DNA of 64,000 nucleotides from a virus, in IMG/VR virus record IMGVR_UViG_3300042691_005581, positions 1 through 64,000 of that record. The stretch is one strand, 5' to 3'. This document shows positions 37,190 through 49,497 of this stretch, one piece after another; the stretch's first letter is position 1, and each line of letters begins with the position of its first letter. Both the position numbers and the translations under genes were made by a program. The notes beneath the pieces are model-generated. The model had not been told where the DNA came from. It saw only the letters and a program-made list of their open reading frames with translations, and made no database searches.

Positions 37190-37762
37190 TTATTTTATAC
37201 CTACTATCATGAAACGGTGATATTTTGTTTCAGGATCTTCCAATTGAACTGTATCTTTAAACAAAATTTCCGACATAGGAAAATCGTTTTCTAGATCGGA
37301 TAACTTTTCATGTGGTGTATTATTTGTTTCGTTTCTTGATTGTAACACAACAACAGTTCCTTTGGGGATGTTGTCCCACCAAGCAGAATCATCGATGTCC
37401 AATATACTGGTATTGATAACCATACTGTTTTGATCAATTTGTTGGTAATTTAACAAATTTACATCTTTTATCATGTGTTCTATAGGAATCTCAATGTTAG
37501 CATCGCTAACCATTTTCCTCCCTAATTCGACATGTTTTTTATTTTTGTCTACATTGATAATTTTATCAGCGGTTATGCCTAGCTTGCTTAATATAATAGA
37601 CATGTTACTGTACCAACTGCCTAAAATATATACAGTGCTGAAATTTGTCTTGTTAAGTTTTTTTAGAGTTTGAACAATCCAGATTTTACTATATAGTAGA
37701 TCGTCAGTTATACTGCCTTCTGGACTTACTGGACTGCTTTCTAACAGATCATTCACTTTCAT
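37190..37762 (-). CDS. Class I SAM-methyltransferase-like protein with capsid-targeting-like N-terminus
   Basis: VYILGSWYS, IINVD, DVN, VINTS Rossmann pattern; MKVNDLLE. Confidence 0.55.
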   Translation of the reverse strand: MKVNDLLESSPVSPEGSITDDLLYSKIWIVQTLKKLNKTNFSTVYILGSWYSNMSIILSKLGITADKIINVDKNKKHVELGRKMVSDANIEIPIEHMIKDVNLLNYQQIDQNSMVINTSILDIDDSAWWDNIPKGTVVVLQSRNETNNTPHEKLSDLENDFPMSEILFKDTVQLEDPETKYHRFMIVGIK

Positions 37763-38045
37763 GTTTGCGCTCTCCAGTAAGATAGGGCAAACTAAACCAT
37801 AGTTGGAACCATTCTGGTGTTCCCGGTCTTATGTTTTTCTCTCGCATTATTCTTGCATTTTCTGCTGCGGTGTGCGTTATATTGTTACCGACAGTTTCTT
37901 GAAGTTGGGGAGTATGACCTAGTCCCGCAAGATATTGCATTCTTGCTAATTCATATGCAGGATCGTTTGGCGGCAAAATACAATCATCATCTGAGGGTTT
38001 TATCAGATGGGATGCATTTATTTTAACTTGCCGCCATTCGCTCAT
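37749..38045 (-). CDS. Hypothetical protein (PGTPEWF motif)
   Basis: Coupled ORF. Confidence 0.6.
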   Translation of the reverse strand: MSEWRQVKINASHLIKPSDDDCILPPNDPAYELARMQYLAGLGHTPQLQETVGNNITHTAAENARIMREKNIRPGTPEWFQLWFSLPYLTGERKHESE

Positions 38046-38902
38046 TTCTTAAGAGTTTCGTTTAGCATTGTCTGCAATCTTAACTCGTACCAGTTAGATT
38101 CCATAGGCACACACTTATCTTTATAAGTACCATCGGCTTTCTTTACCTTACCGGCATAACGCTTACCTTTCCAACAAGCCTTTCCGTCCACACCTTTAAC
38201 TTTTTCTTCTGCCACACCTTGCTCTTTGTTTGATGTTGATTTCTTGACAGGGCCAAAACCATGTAAACGATTGTCAGCTTTAACTGCGCCACGAGCACGA
38301 TTTGCAATTTTTGGAGTAGTTGGTGCGTTATAGTTAGTTGCTCCAGGACTTGCTTGTACTTGGGCTCGTGCTTTATTTTTATATGAAGTTAATGTTGCCG
38401 GAGACAATTCGTTAACCTGTTTGGAGCTTTCTGACAAACTATCTTCTTCACTTTGCATATAATCCCAAACTGTAACTAACATGCTTTTAGCAACTGCAAT
38501 TTTTTCTTGACACCATTCAGGCAAATTATCGCCGGCATTGATTAATTCATCTAATCCTACTACTGCACGATGTAGAGTTTCTAAATTGTTGTCAGCCATG
38601 CCTGCTTCGTCGTTGTATTCTGCATCGTCGACGTTTTCATTTTTTTTATTGTTTGCTAATGCATTAGCTGCTATACCTCCAACAACTGCTCTACCTACTG
38701 CTCCGGCAATGGGAGCCAGTGCTGCAAATTCTGCAAGCTCTTTATTTTTATGTTTTTGCCCACGAACTTGATCAGCTGATCTCTTTTTATCCTTATGCTC
38801 GCCAGATCCTGATCCTACAGTTTGGTGAGCCTTGGCTACTGGATTTTTTGTTTTAAGAGTGTATTTTACAGCTTTTACACCTTTTTTATGTTCGTTGATC
38901 AT
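38042..38902 (-). CDS. Modular probable internal head protein
   Basis: Short modules separated by [LIV]xE sites; ACWKG.R..G...CVP module. Confidence 0.6.
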   Translation of the reverse strand: MINEHKKGVKAVKYTLKTKNPVAKAHQTVGSGSGEHKDKKRSADQVRGQKHKNKELAEFAALAPIAGAVGRAVVGGIAANALANNKKNENVDDAEYNDEAGMADNNLETLHRAVVGLDELINAGDNLPEWCQEKIAVAKSMLVTVWDYMQSEEDSLSESSKQVNELSPATLTSYKNKARAQVQASPGATNYNAPTTPKIANRARGAVKADNRLHGFGPVKKSTSNKEQGVAEEKVKGVDGKACWKGKRYAGKVKKADGTYKDKCVPMESNWYELRLQTMLNETLKK

Positions 38903-38912
38903 TTTAAATTCC

Positions 38913-39323
38913 TTAGACTATTAGATTATCTGAATTTCCTGGAGCCGATGCTACGGAACCAGAACCTGATGATCCGCCGCTTGCGCTTTCTTGAGATTTA
39001 GGTTGCCAAAATTTTCCTCGACCAAAGAACATATTTGCACGTTGATTTTCGAATGGACTATACCACTTGCCGCTTTTAGTTCTGAACAGTCCTGCTTTTT
39101 CAGCATCAGCTTCTTTCCCTGGCTGCACGTTGTAAAAATACACTCCATTGGCTGGTACTGATTTAAACTTTTTTTCAAAATTGGGTTGATCTTCGTGACC
39201 TAACTCGTGCTCCATTTCTCGACGTTTAAAATCACGTTTATTGGCGTCCATTTGATCCTGTTGATTACGTTCGTAATCTAAGGGGTTGTATCGATTTTCG
39301 CCTAATAGATCTATTATTTTCAT
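38913..39323 (-). CDS. Probable internal head protein
   Basis: MKIIDLLGE N-terminus. Confidence 0.55.
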   Translation of the reverse strand: MKIIDLLGENRYNPLDYERNQQDQMDANKRDFKRREMEHELGHEDQPNFEKKFKSVPANGVYFYNVQPGKEADAEKAGLFRTKSGKWYSPFENQRANMFFGRGKFWQPKSQESASGGSSGSGSVASAPGNSDNLIV

Positions 39324-39688
39324 TTCTTTTTCATCCAGTTTGCAACAGGGCTTGTTGTATTTGTGCTCTTTAACTCTTGACTGTTTGAGTCGCCATGATT
39401 TAAATCTTGATAATTTGCACCTGCAACCTTATATGCAATTTTTAACATGTCTTCTTCTGCTTTACTATACGGTGCTGCTAATTTAGATTTTCCTATCCAG
39501 CTTTCAGTGTCCATGTCTGGTACTATTTCCCCGTCAGTGCCTGCAACTGCAAGTCCTAATCTATATAGTGTATAATCACCGTTCCATCGATCTGCATCTG
39601 AAAATTTGTGCAGGCCGCGAGTTGGCTGCTGTTGGCGACTAGTAAGTGTGCCCTTCTTGCCTTCATCGATGAATTCTTTTGCTCTCAT
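39320..39688 (-). CDS. Probable internal head protein
   Basis: MRAKEFIDE, close to the T4 capsid-targeting sequence MKTYQEFIAE. Confidence 0.6.
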   Translation of the reverse strand: MRAKEFIDEGKKGTLTSRQQQPTRGLHKFSDADRWNGDYTLYRLGLAVAGTDGEIVPDMDTESWIGKSKLAAPYSKAEEDMLKIAYKVAGANYQDLNHGDSNSQELKSTNTTSPVANWMKKK

Positions 39689-40128
39689 TATACGCCCTTA
39701 CTGCTGGCTTTTAACATCCATCCATGCTTTCGATGTGCATCAATTCTGCTGGCTAGAAAATCGCTAAAACCTGCTTCCTTATATTTTTCAGATAATTCAA
39801 AGATAAGTTTGTAAATGTTAACTAGTTTTTCATTGTCTTCGATTAATTCCGCTAGCATTCTTTCTTTTGGTGCTACTTCGACTGCATCGTCAATTTGGCT
39901 CAACATGTTAAATCGTGAAAGACTACCCGGAACATATGTATCTAATGCTCTAATTTGTTCAGCATATACGTCGATACTTTCAAATACTTCTTCGTAGATG
40001 CCGCCGAATAAATCGTGATACTGCTTAAAATCACTGCCTTCTACGTTCCAGTGAAAGTAATGCGCCTTTAAGTAAAAACTAAAAGAACTAGCGAATCCTA
40101 CTTTAGCAGCTTGTTTTAAATCTTCCAT
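39688..40128 (-). CDS. dps: Dps-family ferritin-like protein
   Basis: KAHYFHWNVEG.DF...H.LF..IYEE...D..AEQIRAL; H.KH.WML; probable ATG at 40128. Confidence 0.92.
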   Translation of the reverse strand: MEDLKQAAKVGFASSFSFYLKAHYFHWNVEGSDFKQYHDLFGGIYEEVFESIDVYAEQIRALDTYVPGSLSRFNMLSQIDDAVEVAPKERMLAELIEDNEKLVNIYKLIFELSEKYKEAGFSDFLASRIDAHRKHGWMLKASSKGV

Positions 40129-40146
40129 TTTATAATCCAATGTAGT

Positions 40147-42297
40147 TTATTTATTTTCTAAACGTTTAATAAGATTTTCCATTTGCGATTCTATAGATTC
40201 ATTTAATGGTAAAAATTTTGATTCGTTTAATGATACAATGGGTACTCTCTTAATCATAAACTTCTCAAGTAGATCAAAGTATTCATATCTTTTGTGTTCT
40301 GCAACAATTCTTTTATCCGGAGAAACTCCGCTAGATCGTTTAAACGCGGTTTTGTCTTTGTTGATCAATGCTTGTTTTAACTCTTTGTCATGTCTATAGT
40401 AAGGTGTTGCAACTTTTGTAACTTTATCAAAATTAAAATATCCGTGCTTACCGTCATGCCCGTTATTTTTAAGTATTTCTTTAAAAATGTGATCATGTCT
40501 TGTGCAAACTACTAGTTCTATATCTCCGTATTTCTTATAAGCCTTAACAGCCAACGCTAACCAATCATCTACTATTTCTAAATGTTCTTTTACCCTAGGC
40601 ATAGCAGTTTCAAGACATACTAATTTAACTTCGTGCGGTAGTGGATTCTTAGGATCTTTTTTGACTTTGTTAGTGCCAACCATCCAGTATTTTGTTTTTG
40701 CAGCAACTTTCCATCCATCTATACTGTCCTTATCAGGAGGATTGTATTTGTCGAATACAATAGATACTTTTGGATCTACACTTTCCGATATAGGCTGCAC
40801 TGCTGTTGGTAATCCAGGCTTAGGTGCAGAGTTAGTTTTTGCTGATGGTAAAAACTTTTTAATAGATTTTTTAGTTAATGGTCCGAGATAGCCATCGATG
40901 TCTAAATTAGCACCAAATTTATCGTTCAACATCTGTTGAATTTGTCGAACTATAGGATCGTTGGGTTTGTTGCGTTCTTCTACTTTATCGTGTATCTCAG
41001 GCTGTTCATGACCCCCACCGATCTCTTTATATCGCATTTTCAATCTATCTAATTTCTGCTTCAGCCCTATTAGTTCTTTCTTATCGTATGGAATTATTAC
41101 CATATCACTGTCACCTTGACCGTACTCATGTGGATCATCGGTGCCTAGTGTAGGATAATGCTGTCCTAACTTGTACCAATCTAAATCACCCGGGGTATCA
41201 ATGACTAATGAATTCTTAGGAGTTGTCAGTAGATCTTTCTGATATCCTTTTGGATCTGGCTCTACTGCTCTGCCTTCTGCTATCTTTTTTTCATCGTTAG
41301 CAAACTGCTTCTTAGTTGCCTTAATAATACCTGAAAATCGTTTATTACCTCGAGCATAGTCGCCTTCTGCATCTGCCTTCCTGGCATCGGCCCCTGCTGC
41401 TTTTTTATATCTTGCTAGTGTATCGTTAGACAACTCTGCAAGGTTAAATGCTTTTAGATTTTTTTCTACTTGTCCTGGTCGTACATCTTTAGTCAGGCTT
41501 GTGCTATAACGAGGATCCTTTGCTTGCTTTTTACTGGCAATAACACCAACACCGGCAGCCTCTTCACCTACGGCAGATTTCTTGCCTTTACTTGCAGGCA
41601 CAGCAGCCATACGTTGTTTAGCTTTAAGCATGAGGTCTTTAACTTCCTCATCACTTAAATTATCAGGCATATCTCTACGCCATACTGCAAATTGTTCTTC
41701 TTCACTCTTGCTAGGATCTAGCAACACTTGGCGCATCGGAGTAGCTCTAGGACCTTCTTGATATTCCGGCCCACCCTTTACACTGCTAGGTTCTGTTGTA
41801 TCTTGTCTAGAAATAATTTCTAAATCTGTTAATCCTGCTCGCTGATATGGAGGAACACCGGACTTATCAGGTCTAGTTAAAAAGCTAAAAGATGCCTTTT
41901 CTTGTTCTCCTACAATTAGGATAACCTTACTAAACCCTTCTCCAGCAATTTTAGCCAACACTTTATCTAATGTACTAGCATCTGGAGTGGCCACACTAAA
42001 CACTTCTGCATTTTGAGGAAATACCTTACGATATGTTGCTAGTTTTTCTTCGGGCGATAACGGATCATCTTTAGTCTTTGTAAATGTAGGTTTGTCGGTC
42101 CATGGTTGACCTGTTGCAGGATCTACAAGACTAGTCCTTGATACTACAAAAAACGGTTTAGCATTTTGTTGTTGTGCATGGTGTATGACAGCCTTAGCTA
42201 ATAACATATGACCTTTATGTCCCATCCCACGGCCCCATCCTAACACTGCGGTTTTACCGTTGACTGATATTTCTTCAAATAAATTCTTTAATAGCAT
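40147..42297 (-). CDS. Multidomain protein: HxGH nucleotidyltransferase (cytidylyltransferase/NMNAT-like) plus short modules plus a peptidoglycan-binding domain
   Basis: GWGRGMGHKGH, RATPMR; VRQIQQML...LDIDGYLGPLTKKSIKKF (PG_binding_1-like); probable start MLLKNLFEE at 42297 with AGGA RBS. Confidence 0.7.
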   Translation of the reverse strand: MLLKNLFEEISVNGKTAVLGWGRGMGHKGHMLLAKAVIHHAQQQNAKPFFVVSRTSLVDPATGQPWTDKPTFTKTKDDPLSPEEKLATYRKVFPQNAEVFSVATPDASTLDKVLAKIAGEGFSKVILIVGEQEKASFSFLTRPDKSGVPPYQRAGLTDLEIISRQDTTEPSSVKGGPEYQEGPRATPMRQVLLDPSKSEEEQFAVWRRDMPDNLSDEEVKDLMLKAKQRMAAVPASKGKKSAVGEEAAGVGVIASKKQAKDPRYSTSLTKDVRPGQVEKNLKAFNLAELSNDTLARYKKAAGADARKADAEGDYARGNKRFSGIIKATKKQFANDEKKIAEGRAVEPDPKGYQKDLLTTPKNSLVIDTPGDLDWYKLGQHYPTLGTDDPHEYGQGDSDMVIIPYDKKELIGLKQKLDRLKMRYKEIGGGHEQPEIHDKVEERNKPNDPIVRQIQQMLNDKFGANLDIDGYLGPLTKKSIKKFLPSAKTNSAPKPGLPTAVQPISESVDPKVSIVFDKYNPPDKDSIDGWKVAAKTKYWMVGTNKVKKDPKNPLPHEVKLVCLETAMPRVKEHLEIVDDWLALAVKAYKKYGDIELVVCTRHDHIFKEILKNNGHDGKHGYFNFDKVTKVATPYYRHDKELKQALINKDKTAFKRSSGVSPDKRIVAEHKRYEYFDLLEKFMIKRVPIVSLNESKFLPLNESIESQMENLIKRLENK

Positions 42298-42298
42298 G

Positions 42299-43435
42299 TT
42301 AGTCTTTCCTCGGTGCCCATGTTCCTTGATCAATTGCTTTTACAAATTGACCTGGCAAATCTTTCTTAAACTGCCCACCTGGATGTGCTTGCACATAACC
42401 TTCAGGTTTTGTTTGTCTAATACCACCGTGCGTTCCTGCACTTAATCGTTTAATCAGGTCACTCTTAGCTAAACTTAATTTTTCTACAGAAGTTAATATA
42501 GTGTCTAATGCAGGGTCGTTGATAATCTTAGCTGCTTGCCCGCTAGATAAATTTTGTGCTGCCCAATCTTTAAACTTTTCTTTAACTCCTGCAACTCTTA
42601 AGTTCTGATTAAAAAATTTGTAGAGAACATCGCCCGGCTTACTTAATCCTGGTTTAGGAGATAGAAAGTTATCAATTGCAGCAGCATTAGTTTCTATGTA
42701 TCCTTGTGCGTCGTCGATCAATCGATCATCGATTCCTGGTGCTTCACTTACGTGTGTAGTTCCCTGCACAATAACATCCGGAGTGCTGAGACTTTCAGCA
42801 TTAGGGTATCGACCTTCTTCACTACTGCCTAGTGTATCATAATAGCCTGTAACAGCTACCATTACTTTGGCCTTTGATATCTGTGTTCCTAATTCTGATT
42901 TTCTAGGTATGTGAAAACTAGTAATGTTTGGAGTGAAATCGTATTCACCTGTCTTTGGGTTTAATACTGCGGGTTTACTAGGATAAAATAATAATCCGCC
43001 TTCTACATATCCCTTACGAGGACTTACTTTTTCAAAATAGGGCCATAAATCCATCAGTTCCTGAGCATACGCTGTTCTTTGTGCAGCTTGCTCATCACTA
43101 CCTGGTTTACCTGTGCCTAAGATAAAGTTTTTAATATCTTCGGGACTATACATAACAGTCTTAACGCCGTTGTCTAATTCTGTTTTGCCTCGCTTGAGAT
43201 ATTCCCATGCATTCTTTGGAAACATACTGAATCGGCCCTGCTGATCTCGCCCCCAGTATACAACTGGACTTCCGTCCCATTTTAATTCAATAGTTCCGCC
43301 CTGTCCGGCCATACTTCGTAACCTCTCAGCGGCATGAACACCACCGTCACTACCATTAGTAAACACCAAGTCTTCGATATGCTGATACTTTCGACCTACT
43401 GCGGCTGCTTCTGATAATAGTTCACGTATTTTCAT
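42299..43435 (-). CDS. RNA/DNA ligase-fold (KxDG) nucleotidyltransferase
   Basis: Motif I LKWDGSP, III VEGGLLF, IV PEGYV, V FVKAID; MKIRELLSE N-terminus. Confidence 0.65.
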   Translation of the reverse strand: MKIRELLSEAAAVGRKYQHIEDLVFTNGSDGGVHAAERLRSMAGQGGTIELKWDGSPVVYWGRDQQGRFSMFPKNAWEYLKRGKTELDNGVKTVMYSPEDIKNFILGTGKPGSDEQAAQRTAYAQELMDLWPYFEKVSPRKGYVEGGLLFYPSKPAVLNPKTGEYDFTPNITSFHIPRKSELGTQISKAKVMVAVTGYYDTLGSSEEGRYPNAESLSTPDVIVQGTTHVSEAPGIDDRLIDDAQGYIETNAAAIDNFLSPKPGLSKPGDVLYKFFNQNLRVAGVKEKFKDWAAQNLSSGQAAKIINDPALDTILTSVEKLSLAKSDLIKRLSAGTHGGIRQTKPEGYVQAHPGGQFKKDLPGQFVKAIDQGTWAPRKD

Positions 43436-44307
43436 TTAACTTGATCCATCATTTGTCTAAACCATTCACGTGAACCGGGTGTGTAACTTTCTTTTAGTCT
43501 ATACTGAGTTTTATATTTTACTAAACCGTCGTTGACTTTGGCAACAACATCATTGTACTTGTCGGGATGTGATTGTTTGAACTTAGCTAATATTGCATTG
43601 ATGTTGTCTAGATCAGATGCGCTTGCTTTACCGCCAAACAATGCTTTACTGATAGCATCTGGATCTTGCGGATTGCTATCCGGTATAACTGCTCCACCTG
43701 TACTTCTGCTTACCAATCCTGCTTTGTAACTCCACATCCAATCTGGATTGATAGCCTTTGCAATTTCAGTTTTTAGAATGTGTCTATACGCACCTTTGGC
43801 TCTTGCATCTTTAGGCATACCGGGTTCGTTTGGTTCTCCGCGCTTACTCCACTGAGTAAATTTGCCCTTACCTGGTTCCGCAATATCTAAATCAATTTGG
43901 AACCATTCTTCGCCGCCGGGTATTTGCACACATGCAGTTAGACCGTCACCGGATATTTTATAATATTTGTTAGGTTGCGATACAAATGATTTTTTAGGTA
44001 ACTCTTGATAACCTGCTTTTTGTAATTTTTGTGCTAGCCATGCACGTAATTGATTTTGTACTTCTTTGGGATCTTGTACTCTATTATCAACTTTGAGATA
44101 ATCAGTGGGATCCAATATAGTATCACCATCTCCAGTTTCTGCATTAGGATATATTGCAGATCCTGCAAGATGCTTCATAAGATCTATTCCTAATTCTCTG
44201 CCCAACGCTTGAACAGCAGATTGTACATCATCAGTAGATGCATTTTGTTTAGTAGCATTAGTACCATCTTGGTACTTAAATTCGTTGCCGCCTTCTAACA
44301 GTATCAT
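43432..44307 (-). CDS. Pol-beta-superfamily nucleotidyltransferase
   Basis: LAGS-x8-GDGDT plus distal FQIDLD; MILLE N-terminus. Confidence 0.6.
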   Translation of the reverse strand: MILLEGGNEFKYQDGTNATKQNASTDDVQSAVQALGRELGIDLMKHLAGSAIYPNAETGDGDTILDPTDYLKVDNRVQDPKEVQNQLRAWLAQKLQKAGYQELPKKSFVSQPNKYYKISGDGLTACVQIPGGEEWFQIDLDIAEPGKGKFTQWSKRGEPNEPGMPKDARAKGAYRHILKTEIAKAINPDWMWSYKAGLVSRSTGGAVIPDSNPQDPDAISKALFGGKASASDLDNINAILAKFKQSHPDKYNDVVAKVNDGLVKYKTQYRLKESYTPGSREWFRQMMDQVK

Positions 44308-44699
44308 ACCTTGTATTCCCCTACTTGATAGATGTTTTCTTGAAATTCTTCTATAAATTTGTCAGAAATTTGCTGGCACAGACCGTCTTTTAATTCTTGA
44401 TCAAATAACGATTTGGGATTATCTTTTAATTTTTCTTTTTTATGATATAAACTGCATCCTTTGGCTACCATAGGTGCCCACATTTTAGAAAATCTTTCTT
44501 TGTTAAAATCTGCAGATGTTATAGTATCTTTTAATTGCGCCACAAAAGGAAGAACAAATTCTTTGTGTAATGCATCATTGTCTAATATAAACCAAAATAC
44601 TTCGTCTGAAAGTTTTTGTTTATCAATATTAGACGTGCCTATTTTCTTAGGTTTGTTGTTTTTGTCTATAGGTACGTTAAAAAATTCAAATAGTTTCAT
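44304..44699 (-). CDS. Hypothetical protein
   Basis: MKLFE N-terminus; coupled to the NTase gene. Confidence 0.6.
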   Translation of the reverse strand: MKLFEFFNVPIDKNNKPKKIGTSNIDKQKLSDEVFWFILDNDALHKEFVLPFVAQLKDTITSADFNKERFSKMWAPMVAKGCSLYHKKEKLKDNPKSLFDQELKDGLCQQISDKFIEEFQENIYQVGEYKV

Positions 44700-44714: not shown

Positions 44715-44795
44715 TTATGACAAATATTTTGCCTTCAAATCCAATGTAACTCTGTAATAAATGTTTTTGTTATTCAACAGATCGTGGATCTTCAT
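44715..44795 (-). CDS. 26-aa ORF MKIHDLLNNKNIYYRVTLDLKAKYLS (not in ORF track; possibly a gene remnant)
   Basis: Strong GGAGAG RBS, late promoter upstream, capsid-targeting-like start. Confidence 0.45.
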   Translation of the reverse strand: MKIHDLLNNKNIYYRVTLDLKAKYLS

Positions 44796-44797
44796 AA

Positions 44798-44821
44798 AAA
44801 TACTCTCCATGGAGTATTTAT
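44798..44821 (-). promoter_or_regulatory. Late-type promoter inside an RBS-sequestering hairpin
   Basis: AAATACTC/GAGTATTT 8-bp stem; ATAAATA at 44815-44821 forms part of the 5' arm; GGAGAG spans the loop and 3' arm. Confidence 0.65.
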
Positions 44822-44842
44822 GTAGTTTTAATCAATTGATAA

Positions 44843-45262
44843 TTATCGGTTATAGTTGATAACCAGCACTACACCGTTTTGACCTATAGTAGGTCTTTCA
44901 ACAACAGCTCTAACCCATACAAAATTCCCCGTAAAATTTGCATAGCTGTTTATTGGTGTAGAAAGCAATTGTGAATAAGTGGCTGTAGTATTGACTATAT
45001 TAAACCAATCTTCACTGGTGGGTGTTGTTGCAAGACTGCCCTGCATATAAATTGAACCGGAAAAATTTTGGTCCACTGAATAGGTAACAGTATGAATGCC
45101 GTCTCCACTTCCGAAATATCCATCGCCCTTTTGTGGCAGACTGAGAAATACACCAGACGGAATAGGTCCAGTATTGGCAGTAGCGGTACTGGGAATTGAA
45201 ACACTGGTGCTAACAGTACCAGTGTTGATCACAAATAGAAATTGTTGGCTTAGATTGGGCAT
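44843..45262 (-). CDS. Beta-rich probable virion protein
   Basis: ATAAATA 4 nt before the ATG; F.G.I..QGSLA..P...DWF.I and NFTGNFVWVRA motifs. Confidence 0.55.
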   Translation of the reverse strand: MPNLSQQFLFVINTGTVSTSVSIPSTATANTGPIPSGVFLSLPQKGDGYFGSGDGIHTVTYSVDQNFSGSIYMQGSLATTPTSEDWFNIVNTTATYSQLLSTPINSYANFTGNFVWVRAVVERPTIGQNGVVLVINYNR

Positions 45263-45933
45263 GAAGTATTTATCTTAGATCTAGGAATAAATTCTTCTAC
45301 TTTGCTAACATTGTTGCCTAAATATAAACCGCACATGCTAAGACTATGCTGATCTTTTGCATAAAAAAACGGATCTTGAATCCAATGTTTTTCGTGTTTT
45401 AACCATTTACTTGTATTATTTGCAATATCGTACCGGTCTCCGTACCTTAACAACCATTCTAAAAATCTCACACGATTGTCTATACTCATCTTGGTTTTAA
45501 GATAAACTTTGTATTGATACTGCCCTTTGGGTAACTGATTACAAATTACTTTCTTGTTATGACTAACTAGAAATTCTAATTCTTCTGTACTACTAGGCTC
45601 AGTAACAATAGTCACCCATTTTTTCATAGACTTAATGATCTTTTCAGAAAGTGCAGCATCTTTAACAAATATATTGAAGTGAGAACCTTCTCCTCTTACT
45701 CGAATTTCTTGATTTTCATAAGGTTGAAAAGCTAATGCAAATTCACCAATGTCAGATTTGTTAGCATCTCGCCAATACCAAGCGTTCCAACTTTTGTTAG
45801 ATTTGTCATCAGCCCATGCAAGAGTTTCGTTAACTCCTACTCTTGCAATGGACCCAGACTTTTTAAGAACACATTCTATTTTAATAGGCCATTTATTGTA
45901 AAATAGCTTACGTGTTTTCTGTCGCTGCATCAT
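45250..45933 (-). CDS. Hypothetical protein
   Basis: Coupled to clpA. Confidence 0.6.
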   Translation of the reverse strand: MMQRQKTRKLFYNKWPIKIECVLKKSGSIARVGVNETLAWADDKSNKSWNAWYWRDANKSDIGEFALAFQPYENQEIRVRGEGSHFNIFVKDAALSEKIIKSMKKWVTIVTEPSSTEELEFLVSHNKKVICNQLPKGQYQYKVYLKTKMSIDNRVRFLEWLLRYGDRYDIANNTSKWLKHEKHWIQDPFFYAKDQHSLSMCGLYLGNNVSKVEEFIPRSKINTSCPI

Positions 45934-48175
45934 TAATCTCTTTGATTGGCAATACTTCTATGTAGTTGAGTTTGAGGTTATTATTTTCCACAGTGATCTC
46001 AACTACTCCGCCATTGACTAATTTACCAAATAAGATTTCTTTACTGAGAGGTTTCTTAATATGTTCGTCAATGGTACGTTGCAACGGGCGAGCACCCATT
46101 TTCTTATCAAATCCTTTGGAAATTAAAAATTCAACAGCTTCGACAGATGGTTTAACTGCAACATTTTTATCTTTGAGAAGGCCGTTAAGTTCATCCACAA
46201 ATTTCTTAACAATTTTAATCATTGTCTGTTGATCAAGTTTTCCAAATCTAACAATGCCGTCCAAGCGATTGCGGAACTCAGGAGCAAAGAACTTGTTAAC
46301 AGCATCTTTAGGATCACCATCACGTTCCAAACTACCAAAACCTACACCATTCTTTTCAGCATCGGCGGCACCTAAGTTACTGGTCATGATGACAATAGCG
46401 TTACGACCGTCAGCTTTTTTACCATTGCTGCCAGTTACAAATCCATTGTCCATTAGCTGAAGCATCACGGTGAGCACACTAGGATGCGCTTTTTCTACTT
46501 CGTCTAACAATAGAACACAGTTAGGATGTTCTTGCAATTTAGTAATAAGTTGTCCAGCATTGTCGTCGAATCCCACATATCCTGGAGGACTTCCTAACAA
46601 TTTTGATACACTGTGCTGTTCTTGATATTCGCTCATATCAAATCTTACAAGCTCAACACTTAGTCCTACTGCAAGTTGTTTAGCAACTTCAGTTTTACCT
46701 ACACCAGTAGGTCCTACAAATAAGAAATTACCAATTGGTCTATTCAAAGATTTTAATCCTGCCTGTGCAATGAATATCTTATCAAGCAGCATTTCGATAG
46801 CATTTTCTTGACCATAAACTTTGCTTCTCAAATTCTTGTCTAAATCTTTTAAATTTTTACTTTCTTTTGATGCAATCTGATCTAATGGCAATCCTGTTGC
46901 TTTGCTAACTTCGAATAAAATTTCATCGTGGTCAACAATGCCGTTTTCCTCGTCTTTAATTTTAAAACGAGCACTTGCACAATCAATAAGATCGATTGCT
47001 TTGTCGGGCAATTTTTTATCAGTCATGTATTTGACACTGTATTTTACAGCATCTACTACAGCCTGCTTGGTGATTTTAACACCGTGATGTTTTTCGTAAT
47101 ATTTCTTTAGACCCATTAGGATTTTAATGGAAGTAGCTTCGTCTGGTTCTCCTATAACCACACGTTGGAATCGACGCATCAATGCGCGATCTTTTTCAAA
47201 GTGTTTGCGGAATTCTTCCCAGGTAGTTGATGCAATAACTTTAATAGTGCCCTTGCCTAACGCTGGCTTCAACATGTTACTCATGTCATTACTGCCGCCA
47301 CCTACTGCACCTGCACCACTCATCATATGAGCTTCATCGATGAATAAGATACAATTCTTTTTCTTTTCAAGAGCACTAACAACCATTTTTAGTCGCTCTT
47401 CAAAGTCTCCTCGATATTTACTACCGGCTAGCATAGCACTGATATCGAGATTGTAAACTGTATGCCCTTGAATAAATTTAGGCACATTGCCTTCTTCAAT
47501 TTTTCTAGCAATGCCTTCGGCGATAGCAGTTTTACCTACGCCCGGATCACCGATCAACATAACATTCGATTTGGTACGGCGAGCCAATACCAATGAGATA
47601 TCTTCAATTTCTTTTTCACGCCCAATAACTGGATCAATTTTCTTTGCCTTAACTTTTGCATTCAAGTTAGTGCAATATTGAACAATAATTTTCTCCAACT
47701 GTCGATTGACTACTTCGTCGGACTCTGCTTCGTCGATTGTATTTTCTTCTTTCGACAAGAAGTCTAAAAATTTATCTCTATCAATTTTGTGTTTTCTCAG
47801 GAAGTAAAATGCATAACTCTTTTTTTCACTAAACATACTGACAAAACAGTCTAACGGTTCAATCTTTGTACGTCCACTAAACAGCACCTGTGTAAATGCT
47901 CTGTTTAGCATACGCTCCATTGCGTGAGTTTTTTTAGGTTTATCTTCGAGATCTGGATTAATAATGTCGAGTAACTCGGTATCAATAAATTGCTTAACTT
48001 CTTTTTTTAGTGTCGACAAGTCGGTACCAAAGCTCTTTAAAATTTCTGAGAATTTTTCATCGTCCAACAAACTGTGAAGAAAGTGCTCTAGCGTTAAGTA
48101 TTCGTGATTTCGATCGGCAGCAGCCAACACAGCTTTTTCAAAAATAGCAGCTAGGCTCTTATCTGGTTCCAACAT
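45908..48175 (-). CDS. clpA: ATP-dependent Clp protease ATP-binding subunit ClpA
   Basis: HEYLTLEH N-domain, GDPGVGKT, LFIDEAH, GPTGVGKT, RFDMSEY, LLLDEVEKAH, GVGF ClpP-binding loop, MGARPL. Confidence 0.92.
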   Translation of the reverse strand: MLEPDKSLAAIFEKAVLAAADRNHEYLTLEHFLHSLLDDEKFSEILKSFGTDLSTLKKEVKQFIDTELLDIINPDLEDKPKKTHAMERMLNRAFTQVLFSGRTKIEPLDCFVSMFSEKKSYAFYFLRKHKIDRDKFLDFLSKEENTIDEAESDEVVNRQLEKIIVQYCTNLNAKVKAKKIDPVIGREKEIEDISLVLARRTKSNVMLIGDPGVGKTAIAEGIARKIEEGNVPKFIQGHTVYNLDISAMLAGSKYRGDFEERLKMVVSALEKKKNCILFIDEAHMMSGAGAVGGGSNDMSNMLKPALGKGTIKVIASTTWEEFRKHFEKDRALMRRFQRVVIGEPDEATSIKILMGLKKYYEKHHGVKITKQAVVDAVKYSVKYMTDKKLPDKAIDLIDCASARFKIKDEENGIVDHDEILFEVSKATGLPLDQIASKESKNLKDLDKNLRSKVYGQENAIEMLLDKIFIAQAGLKSLNRPIGNFLFVGPTGVGKTEVAKQLAVGLSVELVRFDMSEYQEQHSVSKLLGSPPGYVGFDDNAGQLITKLQEHPNCVLLLDEVEKAHPSVLTVMLQLMDNGFVTGSNGKKADGRNAIVIMTSNLGAADAEKNGVGFGSLERDGDPKDAVNKFFAPEFRNRLDGIVRFGKLDQQTMIKIVKKFVDELNGLLKDKNVAVKPSVEAVEFLISKGFDKKMGARPLQRTIDEHIKKPLSKEILFGKLVNGGVVEITVENNNLKLNYIEVLPIKEINDAATENT

Positions 48176-48666
48176 TAAAATTTCCTTTTTAGTTTATTTG
48201 ACTTTTTGACGGCCAGGGCCCATTTTAACGGACTTGTTCTATCTTGATAAACTATTCCTTCTAAATGATCTAATTCGTGTAGAAAGCATCTAGCAGTAAG
48301 TCCGTCAAATTCGGCACGTTCCCATTCTCCACTACTGTTTTGCCATCTTGCACTAACAGTAGTAGGTCTCTTAATTTTAGCATAGATTCCAGGAAAACTC
48401 AAGCATCCTTCTTCATCTTCTGTAAAATTTTTAGCCTCTTCAACAACGGGATTAAAAATTCCTATAGCATGACCTGCTTTACCCATAACAAACATTCTGG
48501 CTTTTACGCCGACTTGGTTGGCAGATAATCCAATTCCGTTGTTATTGACCATAACATCGATCATGTCTTGCTCTAATTGTTTTGGATCCACTACAGGATT
48601 GCCGAAATCAAATTCTGGCATTTGTTCTCTAAGGATAGTATTGGGAAATTTTGTAATAGATAACAT
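48175..48666 (-). CDS. def: Peptide deformylase
   Basis: GIGLSANQVG, EGCLSFP, HELDHLEG. Confidence 0.95.
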   Translation of the reverse strand: MLSITKFPNTILREQMPEFDFGNPVVDPKQLEQDMIDVMVNNNGIGLSANQVGVKARMFVMGKAGHAIGIFNPVVEEAKNFTEDEEGCLSFPGIYAKIKRPTTVSARWQNSSGEWERAEFDGLTARCFLHELDHLEGIVYQDRTSPLKWALAVKKSNKLKRKF

Positions 48667-48669
48667 AGT

Positions 48670-49497
48670 TTAATTTTGATTAAAATTTAATAAAATATTT
48701 TTTTGATGTTCTGTAAGATTTGTTGGAATTGAAATTTTTATAGGCATTAACATTCTTCCACGAAATCGTTGATCGTGTATGTTAGGCATACCGTAGCCTA
48801 CAGCACTTAAAATTTGATCATGCTGGATGCCTGGCGGGATGTTTACTTCTAAACTTTTCCCGTCAATAGATGCTATTGTTTTTTTGCAACCTAGCATAGC
48901 ATCGACACAACTTAGTGTTATTTCTTTTATAAGATCATCACCTTGTCTGCCAAATTCTGGGTGAGGTTTAATGGAAACTGTGACGTTTAAATCTCCTCTT
49001 TGTGAGTTTGGAATTGTATCGTCGCCGAGACCTGCTAACCTAAGAGTGGTACCATCATTAATTCCTGCTGGTATTTTTACGTTAACAGTTTGAGGCCTGC
49101 CACTAGGTAGAGAAATATTAAACATCATTTCTTTGCCATAGAATGCATCTTCTAACGACACTTCTATATGCATGTTCAAAGTTTTATTTCTCTGTTGTCT
49201 ATTATGGGAAAATGGATCAAACGGATTCCTGCCCCCAAAAAATTGTCCAAATATATCGTTCATATCTACTGGACCGTGTCCGCTATGAAAAAACGACTCT
49301 GTTTGGGGATGATCGTATTGATTCTTTTTTTGAGGATCACTGAGGGTATCGTATGCTAGCTGAACTTCTTTGAACTTTTCTGCATCCCCGCCTCGATCAG
49401 GATGATGTTTTGCAGCCAATTTTCGATATGCTTGTTTTACCTCTTCGGGCGATGCGTTTCTTTGAACGCCGAGGGTTTGATAATGATCTGTATTCAT
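48670..49497 (-). CDS. dnaJ: DnaJ/CbpA-type co-chaperone without zinc finger
   Basis: J-domain with HPD, G/F region, DnaJ C-terminal domains. Confidence 0.9.

Follow-up and report, generated by a model that had tools for sequence, protein, structure and literature searches.

In an uncultured giant freshwater phage of a T4-related lineage, three adjacent genes encode enzymes that may form a fill-and-seal module for nucleic-acid repair, at least partly packaged in the phage head; the chances that this reading is right seem evenly balanced. The proteins are a polymerase-like nucleotidyltransferase (NTase291), a polynucleotide-ligase-like enzyme (Lig378) and a multidomain HxGH nucleotidyltransferase (CT716). 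The window, i.e. the whole 64,000-nucleotide stretch of DNA that was analysed, is a 17%-complete fragment of the phage genome.

Organization and conservation of the locus

All three ORFs named in the preliminary description were found side by side on the minus strand (Table 1), and they carry all the motifs quoted there. Their translational coupling is borne out by overlapping ATGA sequences (44304-44307, 43432-43435) and by a 1-nt gap (42298) at the Lig378/CT716 junction. The ORF of the third gene can be read from a TTG codon (40147-42333, 728 aa), but the more likely start is the ATG at 42297, which follows the ligase stop codon as TAA-C-ATG, is preceded by an AGGAAAG Shine-Dalgarno sequence and makes the protein open with MLLKNLFEE. 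A ClpA/DnaJ block neighbours the trio. A sigma-70-like promoter candidate lies near 49.5 kb and, judging from the sequence, might serve to transcribe the entire block, with read-through of a weak hairpin.

Table 1. Features of the trio and its surroundings (window coordinates)
Feature	Coordinates	Strand	Leader	Description
Putative late promoter, CATAAATA	44815..44822	minus		7/8 sequence match to the T4 late-promoter box TATAAATA; small hairpin and T run follow
Mini-ORF	44715..44795	minus	MKIHDLLNN	26 codons, read from sequence; same leader type
g131	44304..44699	minus	MKLFEFF	No assigned function; coupled to NTase gene; kept upstream of NTase in relatives
NTase291	43432..44307	minus	MILLE	291 aa; minimal family-X-polymerase-like nucleotidyltransferase: palm, thumb, 50-aa helical tail
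Lig378	42299..43435	minus	MKIRELLSE	378 aa; DUF6267; divergent covalent nucleotidyltransferase, polynucleotide-ligase-like
CT716	40147..42297	minus	MLLKNLFEE	716 aa from ATG; multidomain; variable C-terminal extension
CT716, cytidylyltransferase-like (HxGH)/NMNAT-like domain	41548..42297	minus		N-terminal; GHKGH ... RATPMR; phrog_395 'cytidyltransferase', E 5.5e-7
CT716, peptidoglycan-binding-like repeat	40852..40959	minus		In C-terminal extension; weak: PF01471 E 0.0036, below Pfam cut-off; phrog_2649 endolysin E 0.0016
CT716, C-terminal domain	40150..40791	minus		Fold unassigned; residues 523-586 weakly match HxGH region of DSL-LC02 enzyme (BLAST E 0.07)
Dps/ferritin-like DNA-binding protein	39688..40140	minus		No leader; directly downstream of CT716; PF00210 E 3e-15; phrog_3636 E 6e-26
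g122	39320..39688	minus	MRAKEFIDE	No assigned function
g136	38913..39323	minus	MKIIDLLGE	No assigned function
g190	37190..37762	minus	MKVNDLLES	Last gene of leader-rich block; no assigned function

The strongest new evidence that the trio is one unit is gene fusion. In 16 distant loci NTase and Lig are merged into one ORF, and among 150 DUF6267 cluster representatives 48 are joined with one partner domain or with both (24 NTase-Lig, 13 Lig-CT, 6 NTase-Lig-CT and 5 Lig-NTase). Two further NTase-Lig-CT fusions were recognised by Pfam, and the order in protein P0245 is CT-NTase-Lig. All 14 close loci, with NTases of 54-94% identity, preserve the gene order ClpA...g131-NTase-Lig-CT...Dps...DNA polymerase. 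Thus the earlier proposal of a functional unit is upheld by synteny in every close relative and by fusion in all combinations elsewhere. Lig also adjoins CT in the cyanophages DSL-LC02, Syn1, S-CAM1 and S-SZBM1; the PolX-like partner was not found in the cyanophages examined. In HTVC008M an AAA_33/Zeta P-loop kinase is located between Lig and CT, and P0233 carries a DUF2608 domain, which we take to be HAD-like. The kinase and DUF2608 may be examples of end-healing partners elsewhere.

Predicted folds of the three enzymes

NTase291 is recognised by no curated model in Pfam, PHROG or NCBIfam. Its AF2 model (pLDDT 91) finds exclusively Pol beta, lambda and mu among the top Foldseek matches, and the best 10 rows of a VIA search are all PolX (Z 7.0-10.1), including African swine fever virus (ASFV) PolX (5hr9; Z 9.7, 165/176 residues aligned). 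RNA-specific nucleotidyltransferases reach Z <=6.8, with the catalytic domain alone aligned, and CD-NTases are found among the weaker matches (Z 5-6.6). Residues G49, S50, D60, D62 and D141 are invariant in homologues, and the GS-x8-GDxD...D spacing is presumably that of Pol beta. The first enzyme, described earlier as a Pol-beta-type nucleotidyltransferase from its GS-x8-GDGD...D motif, resembles in its predicted fold a minimal family-X DNA polymerase, with ASFV Pol X as the nearest structure. As the resemblance is specifically to PolX, gap filling is favoured over nucleotide signalling.

Lig378 matches PF19782 (DUF6267; E 2e-16), and its AF2 model has a pLDDT of 92.8 (below 50 for residues 1-11). 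The best 11 VIA rows are all RNA or DNA ligases, although their Z scores of 4.9-6.2 fall under the VIA 'trust' range. The highest are the RNA ligases NgrRnl (6.2), TbREL1 (5.7) and Trl1 (5.4), with DNA ligases within 1 Z unit; the weak Foldseek matches are mostly ligases, the top three being Trl1. Over 45 sequences H19, D22, K52, D54, G55, K324, E345, G346 and K366 are invariant, and among these are the ligase motifs K52-W-D54-G55, E345-G346 and K366, on which the ligase-fold assignment had been based. A helical insert separates motifs IIIa and IV, and no OB domain is evident in the model. The low structural scores together with the motifs point to a divergent polynucleotide ligase.

The third enzyme had been read as an HxGH nucleotidyltransferase, and both motifs are present in CT716 (G29-H30 in GHKGH; A185 to R189, ATPMR), their catalytic residues being invariant in homologues. 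CT716 itself falls under the Pfam threshold for PF01467. This family is found in 27/30 nearest clusters of the Atlas (score 0.94) and on 3/9 aligned CT homologues, and five fused relatives (P0221, P0289, P0304, P0262 and P0245) score above its Pfam cut-off. CT relatives are 234 to 921 aa long, and the C-terminal extension is missing or different in them. An Atlas search with the C-terminal domain yielded no usable match; it may be a second Rossmann-like domain, degenerate and devoid of HxGH. Two confident AF2 models with fold searches, and family evidence for the third protein, agree with the earlier view that the three folds are unrelated.

Leaders and possible virion association

The leader pattern is present in 6 of the 10 genes at 37190-44699 and in none of the 63 in the rest of the window (p = 1e-6 by Fisher's test, for a pattern chosen post hoc), an excess that appears to be beyond chance. 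As in T4 (IPI-III, Alt and gp24), otherwise unrelated proteins have in common a leader of 9-10 residues, M-[KR]-x-x-[QEDN]-[EL]-[FL]-[ILF]-x-E. The leaders of Lig378, CT716, g122 and g136 come close to the propeptides in the T4 genome, MKTYQEFIAE (IPII/IPIII), MELITELFDE (Alt) and MAKINELLRE (gp24), the first of which is comparable to the leader of g122. The leaders are disordered in the models of both NTase291 and Lig378, and they also occur on unrelated neighbours, including members of PHROG families that carry the annotation 'virion structural protein'. A gp21-type prohead protease, absent from the window fragment, is present in the sister contig G002 (Peptidase_S77, 93 bits) together with a T4-order head module. 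The N-termini can be called capsid-targeting-like. The putative cargo would consist of nucleic-acid enzymes, whereas that of T4 comprises anti-restriction proteins and an ADP-ribosyltransferase. Invariant GGNEFK directly follows the MILLE leader of NTase291, and each of the three domains has an excess of [LIVMF]xE at its N-boundary, inside fusions too (68% against a background of 11%, 65% against 21%, and 100% against 2%), which speaks for packaging. The [hydrophobic]-x-E beside GGNxFK could nevertheless be a structural or catalytic element and not a cleavage site.

Homologues of the HxGH enzyme were identified using mass spectrometry in purified cyanophage virions: S-SZBM1_140, S-SCSM1 ORF91 and S-CREM2 ORF154 (PMC9146016, PMC9602691, PMC10665884). 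All three belong to a cyanomyovirus 'cytitidyltransferase'/NMNAT-like virion protein group (T4-GC 190). The last is taken from the literature; the first two carry the same type of leader, and their homology to the HxGH domain of CT716 was confirmed (E 7e-7 with phmmer, 1e-41 to 1e-51 with an iterated HMM). The cyanomyovirus CT proteins differ from CT716 in their length, 189-409 aa, and in lacking its repeat and extra domain. Cyanophage DUF6267 proteins are leaderless, and one of them, S-SZBM1_141, is absent from the 30 proteins listed in the S-SZBM1 virion proteome; the trio enzymes are therefore not inherently virion proteins. By analogy, the leaders suggest that at least some of the three proteins travel in the phage head. 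The earlier idea of an injected enzyme kit is thus strengthened for CT by the three virions, but not for the leaderless DUF6267 homologue.

Proposed mechanism and its alternatives

In the fill-and-seal reading, the PolX-like enzyme would extend a 3'-OH by a single nucleotide or a few, so as to fill a gap or make an end whole again. ATP-dependent ligases undergo self-adenylylation and then seal nicks; the DUF6267 enzyme would likewise self-adenylylate on Lys52 and close the resulting nick. To our knowledge no repair pathway requires an HxGH nucleotidyltransferase, so that the role of CT716 is a guess: most likely it would make or regenerate an adenylylated cofactor, NMN + ATP -> NAD+ being the closest family chemistry, or alternatively handle adenylylated ends. 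The leaders, ending in [LIF]-x-E, would direct loading into the prohead, gp21-type trimming and delivery together with the DNA. The third enzyme at the least, and probably the whole trio, would be part of the cargo.

ASFV offers a parallel, since its Pol X (174 aa) is, like NTase291, a miniature palm-plus-thumb family-X fold devoid of the 8-kDa and fingers domains and is paired with a dedicated ligase in a large DNA virus, the two forming a minimal viral set for base-excision repair. Both ASFV enzymes are carried in the virion. The phage system, from a bacterial host, differs in that sequence homology between the polymerases is undetectable, DUF6267 stands in place of a canonical, OB-domain-bearing ATP-dependent DNA ligase, the HxGH enzyme is an obligate third partner, and the block shows no AP endonuclease. 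The earlier statement that no characterised system has such a composition thus holds for the trio, but not for the pairing of nucleotidyltransferase and ligase, which is known from ASFV and from the RlaP operons discussed below.

It is somewhat unlikely that the proteins are ordinary cytoplasmic replication enzymes, never injected, with DUF6267 as the missing Okazaki-fragment ligase, the PolX-like enzyme filling the gaps left by primer removal, and the leaders serving as docking helices, translation-initiation context or a ClpA-related tag. Such a role would suit the location of the genes in a replication module (in Kyanoviridae the DUF6267 gene lies within the uvsX-gp41-...-gp61 block), the sigma-70-like promoter upstream with the adjoining ClpA/DnaJ genes, and the leaderless cyanophage proteins. 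The DUF6267-bearing Kyanoviridae have no canonical ligase. Four complete DUF6267-bearing genomes contain no PF01068/PF01653 ligase, the T4 control being positive, in agreement with the report that g30 homologues were not found in cyanomyoviruses (PMC2984593). Against it stand the closeness of the leaders to T4 propeptides with their terminal protease motif, the same leaders on unrelated neighbours, and leader-bearing CT homologues in virions in three studies. The replication role is compatible with the same chemistry and disputes the delivery alone.

A tRNA repair kit directed against host anticodon nucleases such as RloC and PrrC is unlikely. The nucleotidyltransferase would restore nucleotides as RlaP does, DUF6267 would be an RNA ligase, and the HxGH enzyme would supply NAD+ or an ATP-derived cofactor for end processing. 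Comparative genomics has established that polymerase-beta-fold nucleotidyltransferases associate with RNA ligases (PMC7824862). RlaP and RNA ligases share RNA-repair operons of bacteria and phages, T4 NrdC.11 included. In vitro RlaP extends damaged RNA by 1-2 NMP (bioRxiv 10.64898/2025.12.29.696909), and it is proposed in both studies to restore lost nucleotides ahead of sealing. Lig378 finds its best structural matches among RNA ligases, and kinase and HAD-like partners would suit Pnkp-type healing. However, DNA ligases practically tie with the RNA ligases, NTase291 fits PolX (Z 9-10) clearly better than the RNA-specific enzymes, its second domain resembles the PolX thumb, and a Pfam search gave no match to PF10127 (RlaP). 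The partner ligase is neither Rnl1 nor Rnl2 nor RtcB, an HxGH partner is undescribed for RlaP systems in the two studies, the cyanophage context is one of DNA replication, and no tRNA genes were found within the window.

It is quite improbable that the trio serves nucleotide-cofactor or signal metabolism, with the HxGH enzyme as an NMNAT rebuilding NAD+ against NAD-depleting defences and the others making or modifying a nucleotide-derived small molecule or protein tag: the S-SCSM1 homologue is annotated NMNAT by its authors, who remark on its recurrence in virions (PMC9602691), and CD-NTases are among the weaker matches of NTase291, but PolX matches outrank them and cover the second domain too, the KxDG/EG/K signature and ligase matches point to polynucleotide ends, and NAMPT, Nudix and PRPP-synthetase partners, looked for in the block, are not present there.

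For the fill-and-seal module, DNA is slightly favoured over RNA as the substrate, given the replication-block location of the gene in Kyanoviridae and the lack of PF01068/PF01653 ligases in the four genomes, and the DNA ligase seemingly missing from cyanomyoviruses has a candidate in DUF6267.

The locus and its phage

The window covers 64 kb of a viral contig of 77,359 bases in IMG/VR that is judged to be 17% complete. The nearest relatives of its family-B DNA polymerase are those of Sinorhizobium phage Phosso (49.7% identity) and Agrobacterium phage Atu_ph07 (45.6%), phages of 470-490 kb, and then those of Rak2-like giant phages. This affinity to giant phages marks the source as an uncultured giant T4-related myovirus.

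The preliminary description had recognized three adjacent nucleotidyltransferase genes in this DNA. That observation is confirmed: the genes lie on the minus strand at the positions listed in the table, they are translationally coupled, and all of the motifs quoted for them are present. They belong to an uninterrupted block, rich in short T4-like N-terminal peptides (leaders), whose genes are coupled through ATGA overlaps. The ATG at position 42297 lies one base past the ligase stop and has an AGGAAAG Shine-Dalgarno sequence ahead of it. Judged from this context, it is most plausibly the start of enzyme 3, giving a protein of 716 residues with the N-terminus MLLKNLFEE.

Features of the locus and of two related loci
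Feature	Location	Strand	Description
Leader-rich block	44699 to 37190	minus	uninterrupted; g131 (gene just upstream of enzyme 1), 291-aa protein, 378-aa protein, long protein, Dps/ferritin-like protein, six more small genes
Enzyme 1 gene	43432-44307	minus	291 aa
Enzyme 2 gene	42299-43435	minus	378 aa
Enzyme 3 ORF	40147-42333	minus	longest reading; ATG at 42297 favoured
ClpA-like AAA+ protein	45908-48175	minus	phrog_4871, E 1e-248
Peptide-deformylase-like protein	48175-48666	minus	163 aa
DnaJ-domain protein	48670-49497	minus	
Zeta-toxin/AAA_33-type P-loop kinase	L001 (Pelagibacter phage HTVC008M) 7703-8365		220 aa; between DUF6267 and 596-aa HxGH protein
T4-order head module	L046 (on sister contig G002) 6065-16131		portal, 88-aa core-like protein (contains MLLREFV), acidic 340-aa protein, Peptidase_S77, scaffold, 393-aa capsid

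Only one element resembles a late promoter, CATAAATA at 44822-44815. Ahead of the DnaJ-Def-ClpA genes stands a good sigma-70-type promoter (TTGACA-17-TATTAT), which, as a prediction, could feed the leader block too. The DnaJ, Def and ClpA genes make up a chaperone/protease block (45908-49497, minus strand) that adjoins the leader-rich island on its upstream side, and the synteny of ClpA with the trio extends to all close relatives. The gene g139 (44843-45262), immediately upstream of the island, matches phrog_13657 (E 5e-17) and phrog_14467, a 'virion structural protein' (E 2e-8); ATAAATAC precedes its start codon by 4 nt.

When the 'phages' collection was searched with the entire region, with enzyme 1 and with enzyme 3, no match appeared at the DNA or protein level, and the second enzyme was the only member of the trio that matched cultured phages. 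No protein of the block matched NCBIfam.

Structure and affinities of the three enzymes

Enzyme 1 (NTase291) has no sequence match in Pfam, PHROG, NCBIfam or the PDB, and its 57 metagenomic homologues are each at least 54% identical to it. An AlphaFold model built from 28 homologues is confident (pLDDT 91, pTM 0.83). The top 50 Foldseek matches of this model in the PDB are all family-X DNA polymerases (PolX), with E values from 2e-4. In VIA, an independent structural alignment of all against all, the top 10 matches are likewise all PolX (TdT, Pol beta, Pol lambda, Pol mu, Thermus and Deinococcus PolX, and African swine fever virus (ASFV) Pol X), with Z scores of 7.0-10.1 and 162-190 residues aligned at an rmsd of 3.3-5.3; ASFV Pol X gives a Z score of 9.7, and the alignment takes in 165 of its 176 residues. 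The next families are uridylyltransferases and CD-NTases, which reach Z scores of 6.8 or less and align mostly to the catalytic domain alone. The palm residues G49, S50, D60, D62 and D141 are invariant in 20 sequences, down to 27% identity, and the GS-x8-GDxD spacing agrees with what we take to be the spacing in Pol beta. The model aligns solely to residues ~139-335 of Pol beta and has no domain N-terminal of the palm. The protein thus lacks the 8-kDa lyase and the fingers (helix-hairpin-helix) domains, as does ASFV Pol X. Because of the PolX-dominated structural matches and the invariant G-S/DxD...D residues, NTase291 is, on its model, a PolX-like enzyme reduced to palm and thumb, to which a helical tail of 50 residues is added.

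A LicD-type reading, according to which a cytidylyltransferase makes a CDP-alcohol and a polymerase-beta-fold enzyme transfers it, was rejected: LicD and fukutin structures are absent from the 50 best matches, and the PolX matches span both domains of NTase291.

The only sequence model matched by enzyme 2 (Lig378) is PF19782, DUF6267. It has no match to the ligase models PF01068 and PF01653, to the RNA ligase families or to PDB sequences. A HMMER scan of 1.84 billion cluster representatives found DUF6267 in 408 clusters (50% identity) at E values up to 0.001. We found no paper naming this family, which has no assigned function. In an alignment of 45 sequences with a mean column identity of 32%, the residues H19, D22, K52, D54, G55, G62, K324, E345, G346 and K366 are invariant and W53 is nearly so. 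Among them are the counterparts of ligase motifs I (KxDG), IV (EG) and V (K). The confidently predicted model (pLDDT 92.8) places E345-G346 and K366 on strands 346-349 and 364-368. Its Foldseek matches are weak (E values of at least 0.015, TM ~0.2). RNA and DNA ligases fill the top 11 VIA rows (NgrRnl, TbREL1, Trl1, LigIII, Chlorella virus ligase, T4 DNA ligase and T4 Rnl2), yet these matches are weak as well (Z 4.9-6.2, rmsd ~5). An atypical helical insert between motifs IIIa and IV (residues 237-332 of the model) probably depresses the scores. On its motifs and predicted fold together, we read Lig378 as a divergent ligase-type covalent nucleotidyltransferase that could act on either DNA or RNA. 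No capping enzyme appears among the structural matches, in which ligases dominate, and a capping-enzyme reading of DUF6267 was dropped for this reason.

T4-like cyanophages are among the most abundant marine viruses, and no DNA ligase is recognisable in them (PMC2984593). Homologues of g30 have not been found in cyanomyoviruses, where distant ones might exist unrecognised (2010 review, PMC2984593). The four complete DUF6267-bearing genomes of the Kyanoviridae test contain no PF01068 or PF01653 ligase, and the T4 control was positive. As DUF6267 is located in the cyanophage replication module, it is a candidate for the missing DNA ligase of cyanomyoviruses, as far as gene content can tell.

The conserved part of enzyme 3 is its first 250 residues, and its relatives range from 234 to 921 residues in length. 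It matches the phrog_395 'cytidyltransferase' (E 5.5e-7), and 27 of its 30 nearest clusters in the ESM Atlas belong to PF01467. A relationship to the cyanomyovirus 'cytitidyltransferase' family emerges from iterated HMM searches, and the two align on the GRxxxxxGH and G-x-x-A-x-x-x-R motifs. The first of these, an N-terminal motif of the (H/T)xGH type, is GWGRGMGHKGH in enzyme 3 (G22, R23, G29 and H30 invariant) and GRFNPPTxGH in the cyanophages; the second, an ISxTxxR-type motif, is EGPRATPMR in enzyme 3 (G182, A185 and R189 invariant) and SGMSASK(M/L)R in the cyanophages. Enzyme 3 of the window does not itself match PF01467. Three of nine aligned homologues do so (best E 2e-4), and the 21-bit Pfam cut-off is passed by the fused relatives P0221 (32.6 bits), P0245, P0304, P0262 and P0289. 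This evidence places the N-terminal domain in the cytidylyltransferase-like HIGH superfamily, an assignment made by sequence comparison. A homologue was annotated as an NMNAT by the authors who described cyanophage S-SCSM1 (PMC9602691).

The C-terminal 450 residues of enzyme 3 contain a sub-threshold peptidoglycan-binding repeat and one further domain, for which the Atlas search gave nothing usable. PDB sequence searches with the single proteins of the trio returned chance matches only, as did an HxGH-domain profile. The Cys motif KACWKGKRYAG...KDKCVP close to the C-terminus of g286 (38042-38902) recurs at the C-terminus of an 846-aa HxGH protein in locus L003 (8141-10681). This recurrence indicates apparent shuffling of domains between the enzyme 3 extension and neighbouring leader-block genes.

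One module and its possible pathway

The order ClpA...g131-NTase-Lig-CT...Dps...DNA polymerase, where CT denotes enzyme 3, is kept in all 14 loci with an NTase 54-94% identical to NTase291, as far as each contig reaches. In 16 distant loci the NTase and DUF6267 form a single ORF of 607-634 residues, downstream of a primase and a DnaB-like helicase. When domains were mapped on the best 150 DUF6267 representatives, 102 proved to be solitary, 24 were NTase-Lig, 13 Lig-CT and five Lig-NTase; six were NTase-Lig-CT, to which Pfam adds two. In P0245 the order is CT-NTase-Lig. Among cultured phages, the DUF6267 and HxGH genes are adjacent in the Kyanoviridae DSL-LC02, Syn1, S-CAM1 and S-SZBM1. Such fusions, in a variety of permutations, argue strongly that all three activities act in a single pathway, and, as judged from these gene arrangements, the trio very probably constitutes one functional module.

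The genes upstream of DUF6267 in the cyanophages and in HTVC008M were considered as diverged NTases. They show no similarity to the NTase by BLAST or iterated HMM search, and the idea was dropped.

The loci L017, L018, L021 and L022 carry an NTase homologue 46-47% identical to NTase291, with the leader MYLREVLA and without a DUF6267 gene after it. The next gene encodes an unrelated leader-bearing protein of 485-488 residues (MLLRELIS..., MFFRDIVLSE...) that has no family match and adjoins genes with signal-peptide-like starts. This protein may be an alternative partner of the PolX-like enzyme; its matches to DUF6267 and to the HxGH family are not significant (E 0.05-0.4), and it was rejected as a diverged form of either.

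A PolX-like enzyme beside a ligase follows the logic of fill-and-seal repair. Polynucleotide repair of this kind is the most likely pathway as predicted from sequences and models, and a role of the trio in nucleic-acid repair of some sort is favoured. The closest analogue of the PolX-like and ligase-like pair is ASFV Pol X with the ASFV ligase. The RlaP idea, a polymerase-beta-fold NTase beside an RNA ligase (PMC7824862; bioRxiv 10.64898/2025.12.29.696909), offers another likeness; NTase291 has no Pfam match to the RlaP family PF10127 at E values up to 0.1, nor do 19 fused relatives at E values up to 0.01. We lean towards DNA rather than RNA as the substrate because the second domain of NTase291 is PolX-like, because the Kyanoviridae genes lie within the uvsX-gp41-...-gp61 replication block, and because PF01068 and PF01653 ligases are absent from the four genomes of the Kyanoviridae test.

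Two genes separate DUF6267 from the HxGH gene in HTVC008M, and one of them encodes the P-loop kinase listed in the table. The 596-aa HxGH protein of this phage also bears a DUF5824 domain. The metagenomic protein P0233 is a four-part fusion of 1144 residues with an HxGH-type start (PGRFQP), DUF2608 (212-319), which is presumably HAD-like, a PolX-like NTase (547-769) and DUF6267 (787-1142). The presence of kinase and phosphatase-like partners suggests end healing, for which the HTVC008M kinase is a candidate 5'-kinase by sequence.

To our knowledge, none of the known schemes of repair offers a role for the HxGH partner. The kinds of system behind the trio are familiar (viral PolX with ligase, RlaP with ligase, and the T4 internal proteins), and the trio appears to be a variant of them in which the third step is unexplained. 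Since the HxGH step is unexplained, the fusions imply a pathway beyond the textbook repair schemes. Our guess is that the HxGH enzyme supplies or regenerates the adenylyl donor; this is the weakest step of the scheme.

Leaders, possible head packaging and a proposed injected kit

The T4 leaders, read from NC_000866, are MKTYQEFIAE in both IPII and IPIII, MELITELFDE in Alt and MAKINELLRE in gp24. Genes of the block begin with MKIRELLSE, MLLKNLFEE, MRAKEFIDE, MKIIDLLGE, MKVNDLLES, MKLFEFF and MILLE, and a 26-codon ORF within it starts MKIHDLLNN. MKIRELLSE, MKIIDLLGE, MRAKEFIDE and MILLE conform to the T4-like leader of about 10 residues ending in [LI]-x-E (the IPII/IPIII/Alt/gp24 type); MLLKNLFEE ends in F-E-E, and MKVNDLLES has an internal L-L-E. 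A leader pattern defined post hoc occurs in six of the 10 block genes, compared with none of 63 elsewhere. The leader is the only disordered part in the models of both NTase291 and Lig378, and leaders of this kind also occur on homologues from other phages.

The motif [LIVMF]-x-E is enriched at the N-terminal boundary of all three domains, including boundaries internal to fusions (68% against a background of 11%, 65% against 21%, and 100% against 2%). The E that precedes GGNxFK could serve the function of the protein itself and not mark a cleavage site. No protease of the gp21 type (Peptidase_S77) was found in the 77-kb fragment, which is 17% complete. The syntenic sister contig encodes one (93 bits) amid portal, core proteins, scaffold and capsid in the T4 order. 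In most proteins of this head module an [LIV]-x-E lies among the first 10-18 residues, and a 169-aa protein starting MKISDVISE is encoded nearby.

Homologues of enzyme 3 have been detected in virions of three phages: S-SZBM1_140 (PMC9146016), S-SCSM1 ORF91 (PMC9602691) and S-CREM2 ORF154 (PMC10665884). The authors of the S-SCSM1 study remark on the frequent appearance of the NMNAT-like protein in virions (PMC9602691); N-terminal processing is reported in none of the three papers. The homology to enzyme 3 was confirmed for S-SZBM1_140 and S-SCSM1 ORF91, which start MRFRQFIIEA and MKSFLQFLKEA. The DUF6267 protein encoded next to S-SZBM1_140 has no leader and is not in the virion proteome list. 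This fits leader-dependent loading, but it also shows that being packaged is no inherent property of the enzymes. Packaging in the head is probable for at least the HxGH enzyme; for all three enzymes it is possible, although doubtful.

In the S-SCSM1 region L049 1039-6517, the NMNAT-like virion protein is flanked by four genes annotated as 'virion protein' from proteomics (ORFs 89, 90, 92 and 93), none of which is DUF6267. From this arrangement, cyanophages too seem to have low-copy head-internal proteins encoded in a cluster.

The preliminary description had interpreted the trio as a pre-made kit, injected with the DNA and active before phage gene expression. This interpretation is partly supported: the trio is one conserved, often fused three-enzyme module, which in this lineage carries T4-type leaders. 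The full process might be as follows. The trio would be synthesized either singly or as one polyprotein and loaded into the prohead by means of the T4-type leaders. The prohead protease would then cut the proteins apart at the conserved [LIVF]-x-E boundaries, and the trio would be ejected together with the genome. Nicks and gaps in the incoming 7-deazaguanine-modified DNA would be filled and sealed ahead of any phage gene expression, with the adenylyl donor produced on site by the HxGH enzyme. The DNA ligase that has long been missing from the marine cyanomyoviruses would be this same DUF6267 enzyme. We regard this joint proposal, of a capsid-carried break-repair kit acting before phage gene expression and of DUF6267 as the missing cyanomyovirus ligase, as rather unlikely. 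Alternatively, the shared N-terminal leaders might serve another purpose, namely recognition by ClpA.

To judge by the literature found, a family-X-type enzyme would be a polymerase type new to bacteriophages, and a widespread phage family, DUF6267, gains a testable function. That three nucleotidyl-transfer chemistries have repeatedly been joined in a single polypeptide is a mechanistic puzzle. If the leaders do load the enzymes into heads, the principle of the T4 internal proteins would extend from anti-restriction proteins to a repair kit, and the leaders would provide a sequence tag for finding the injected proteins of uncultured giant phages.
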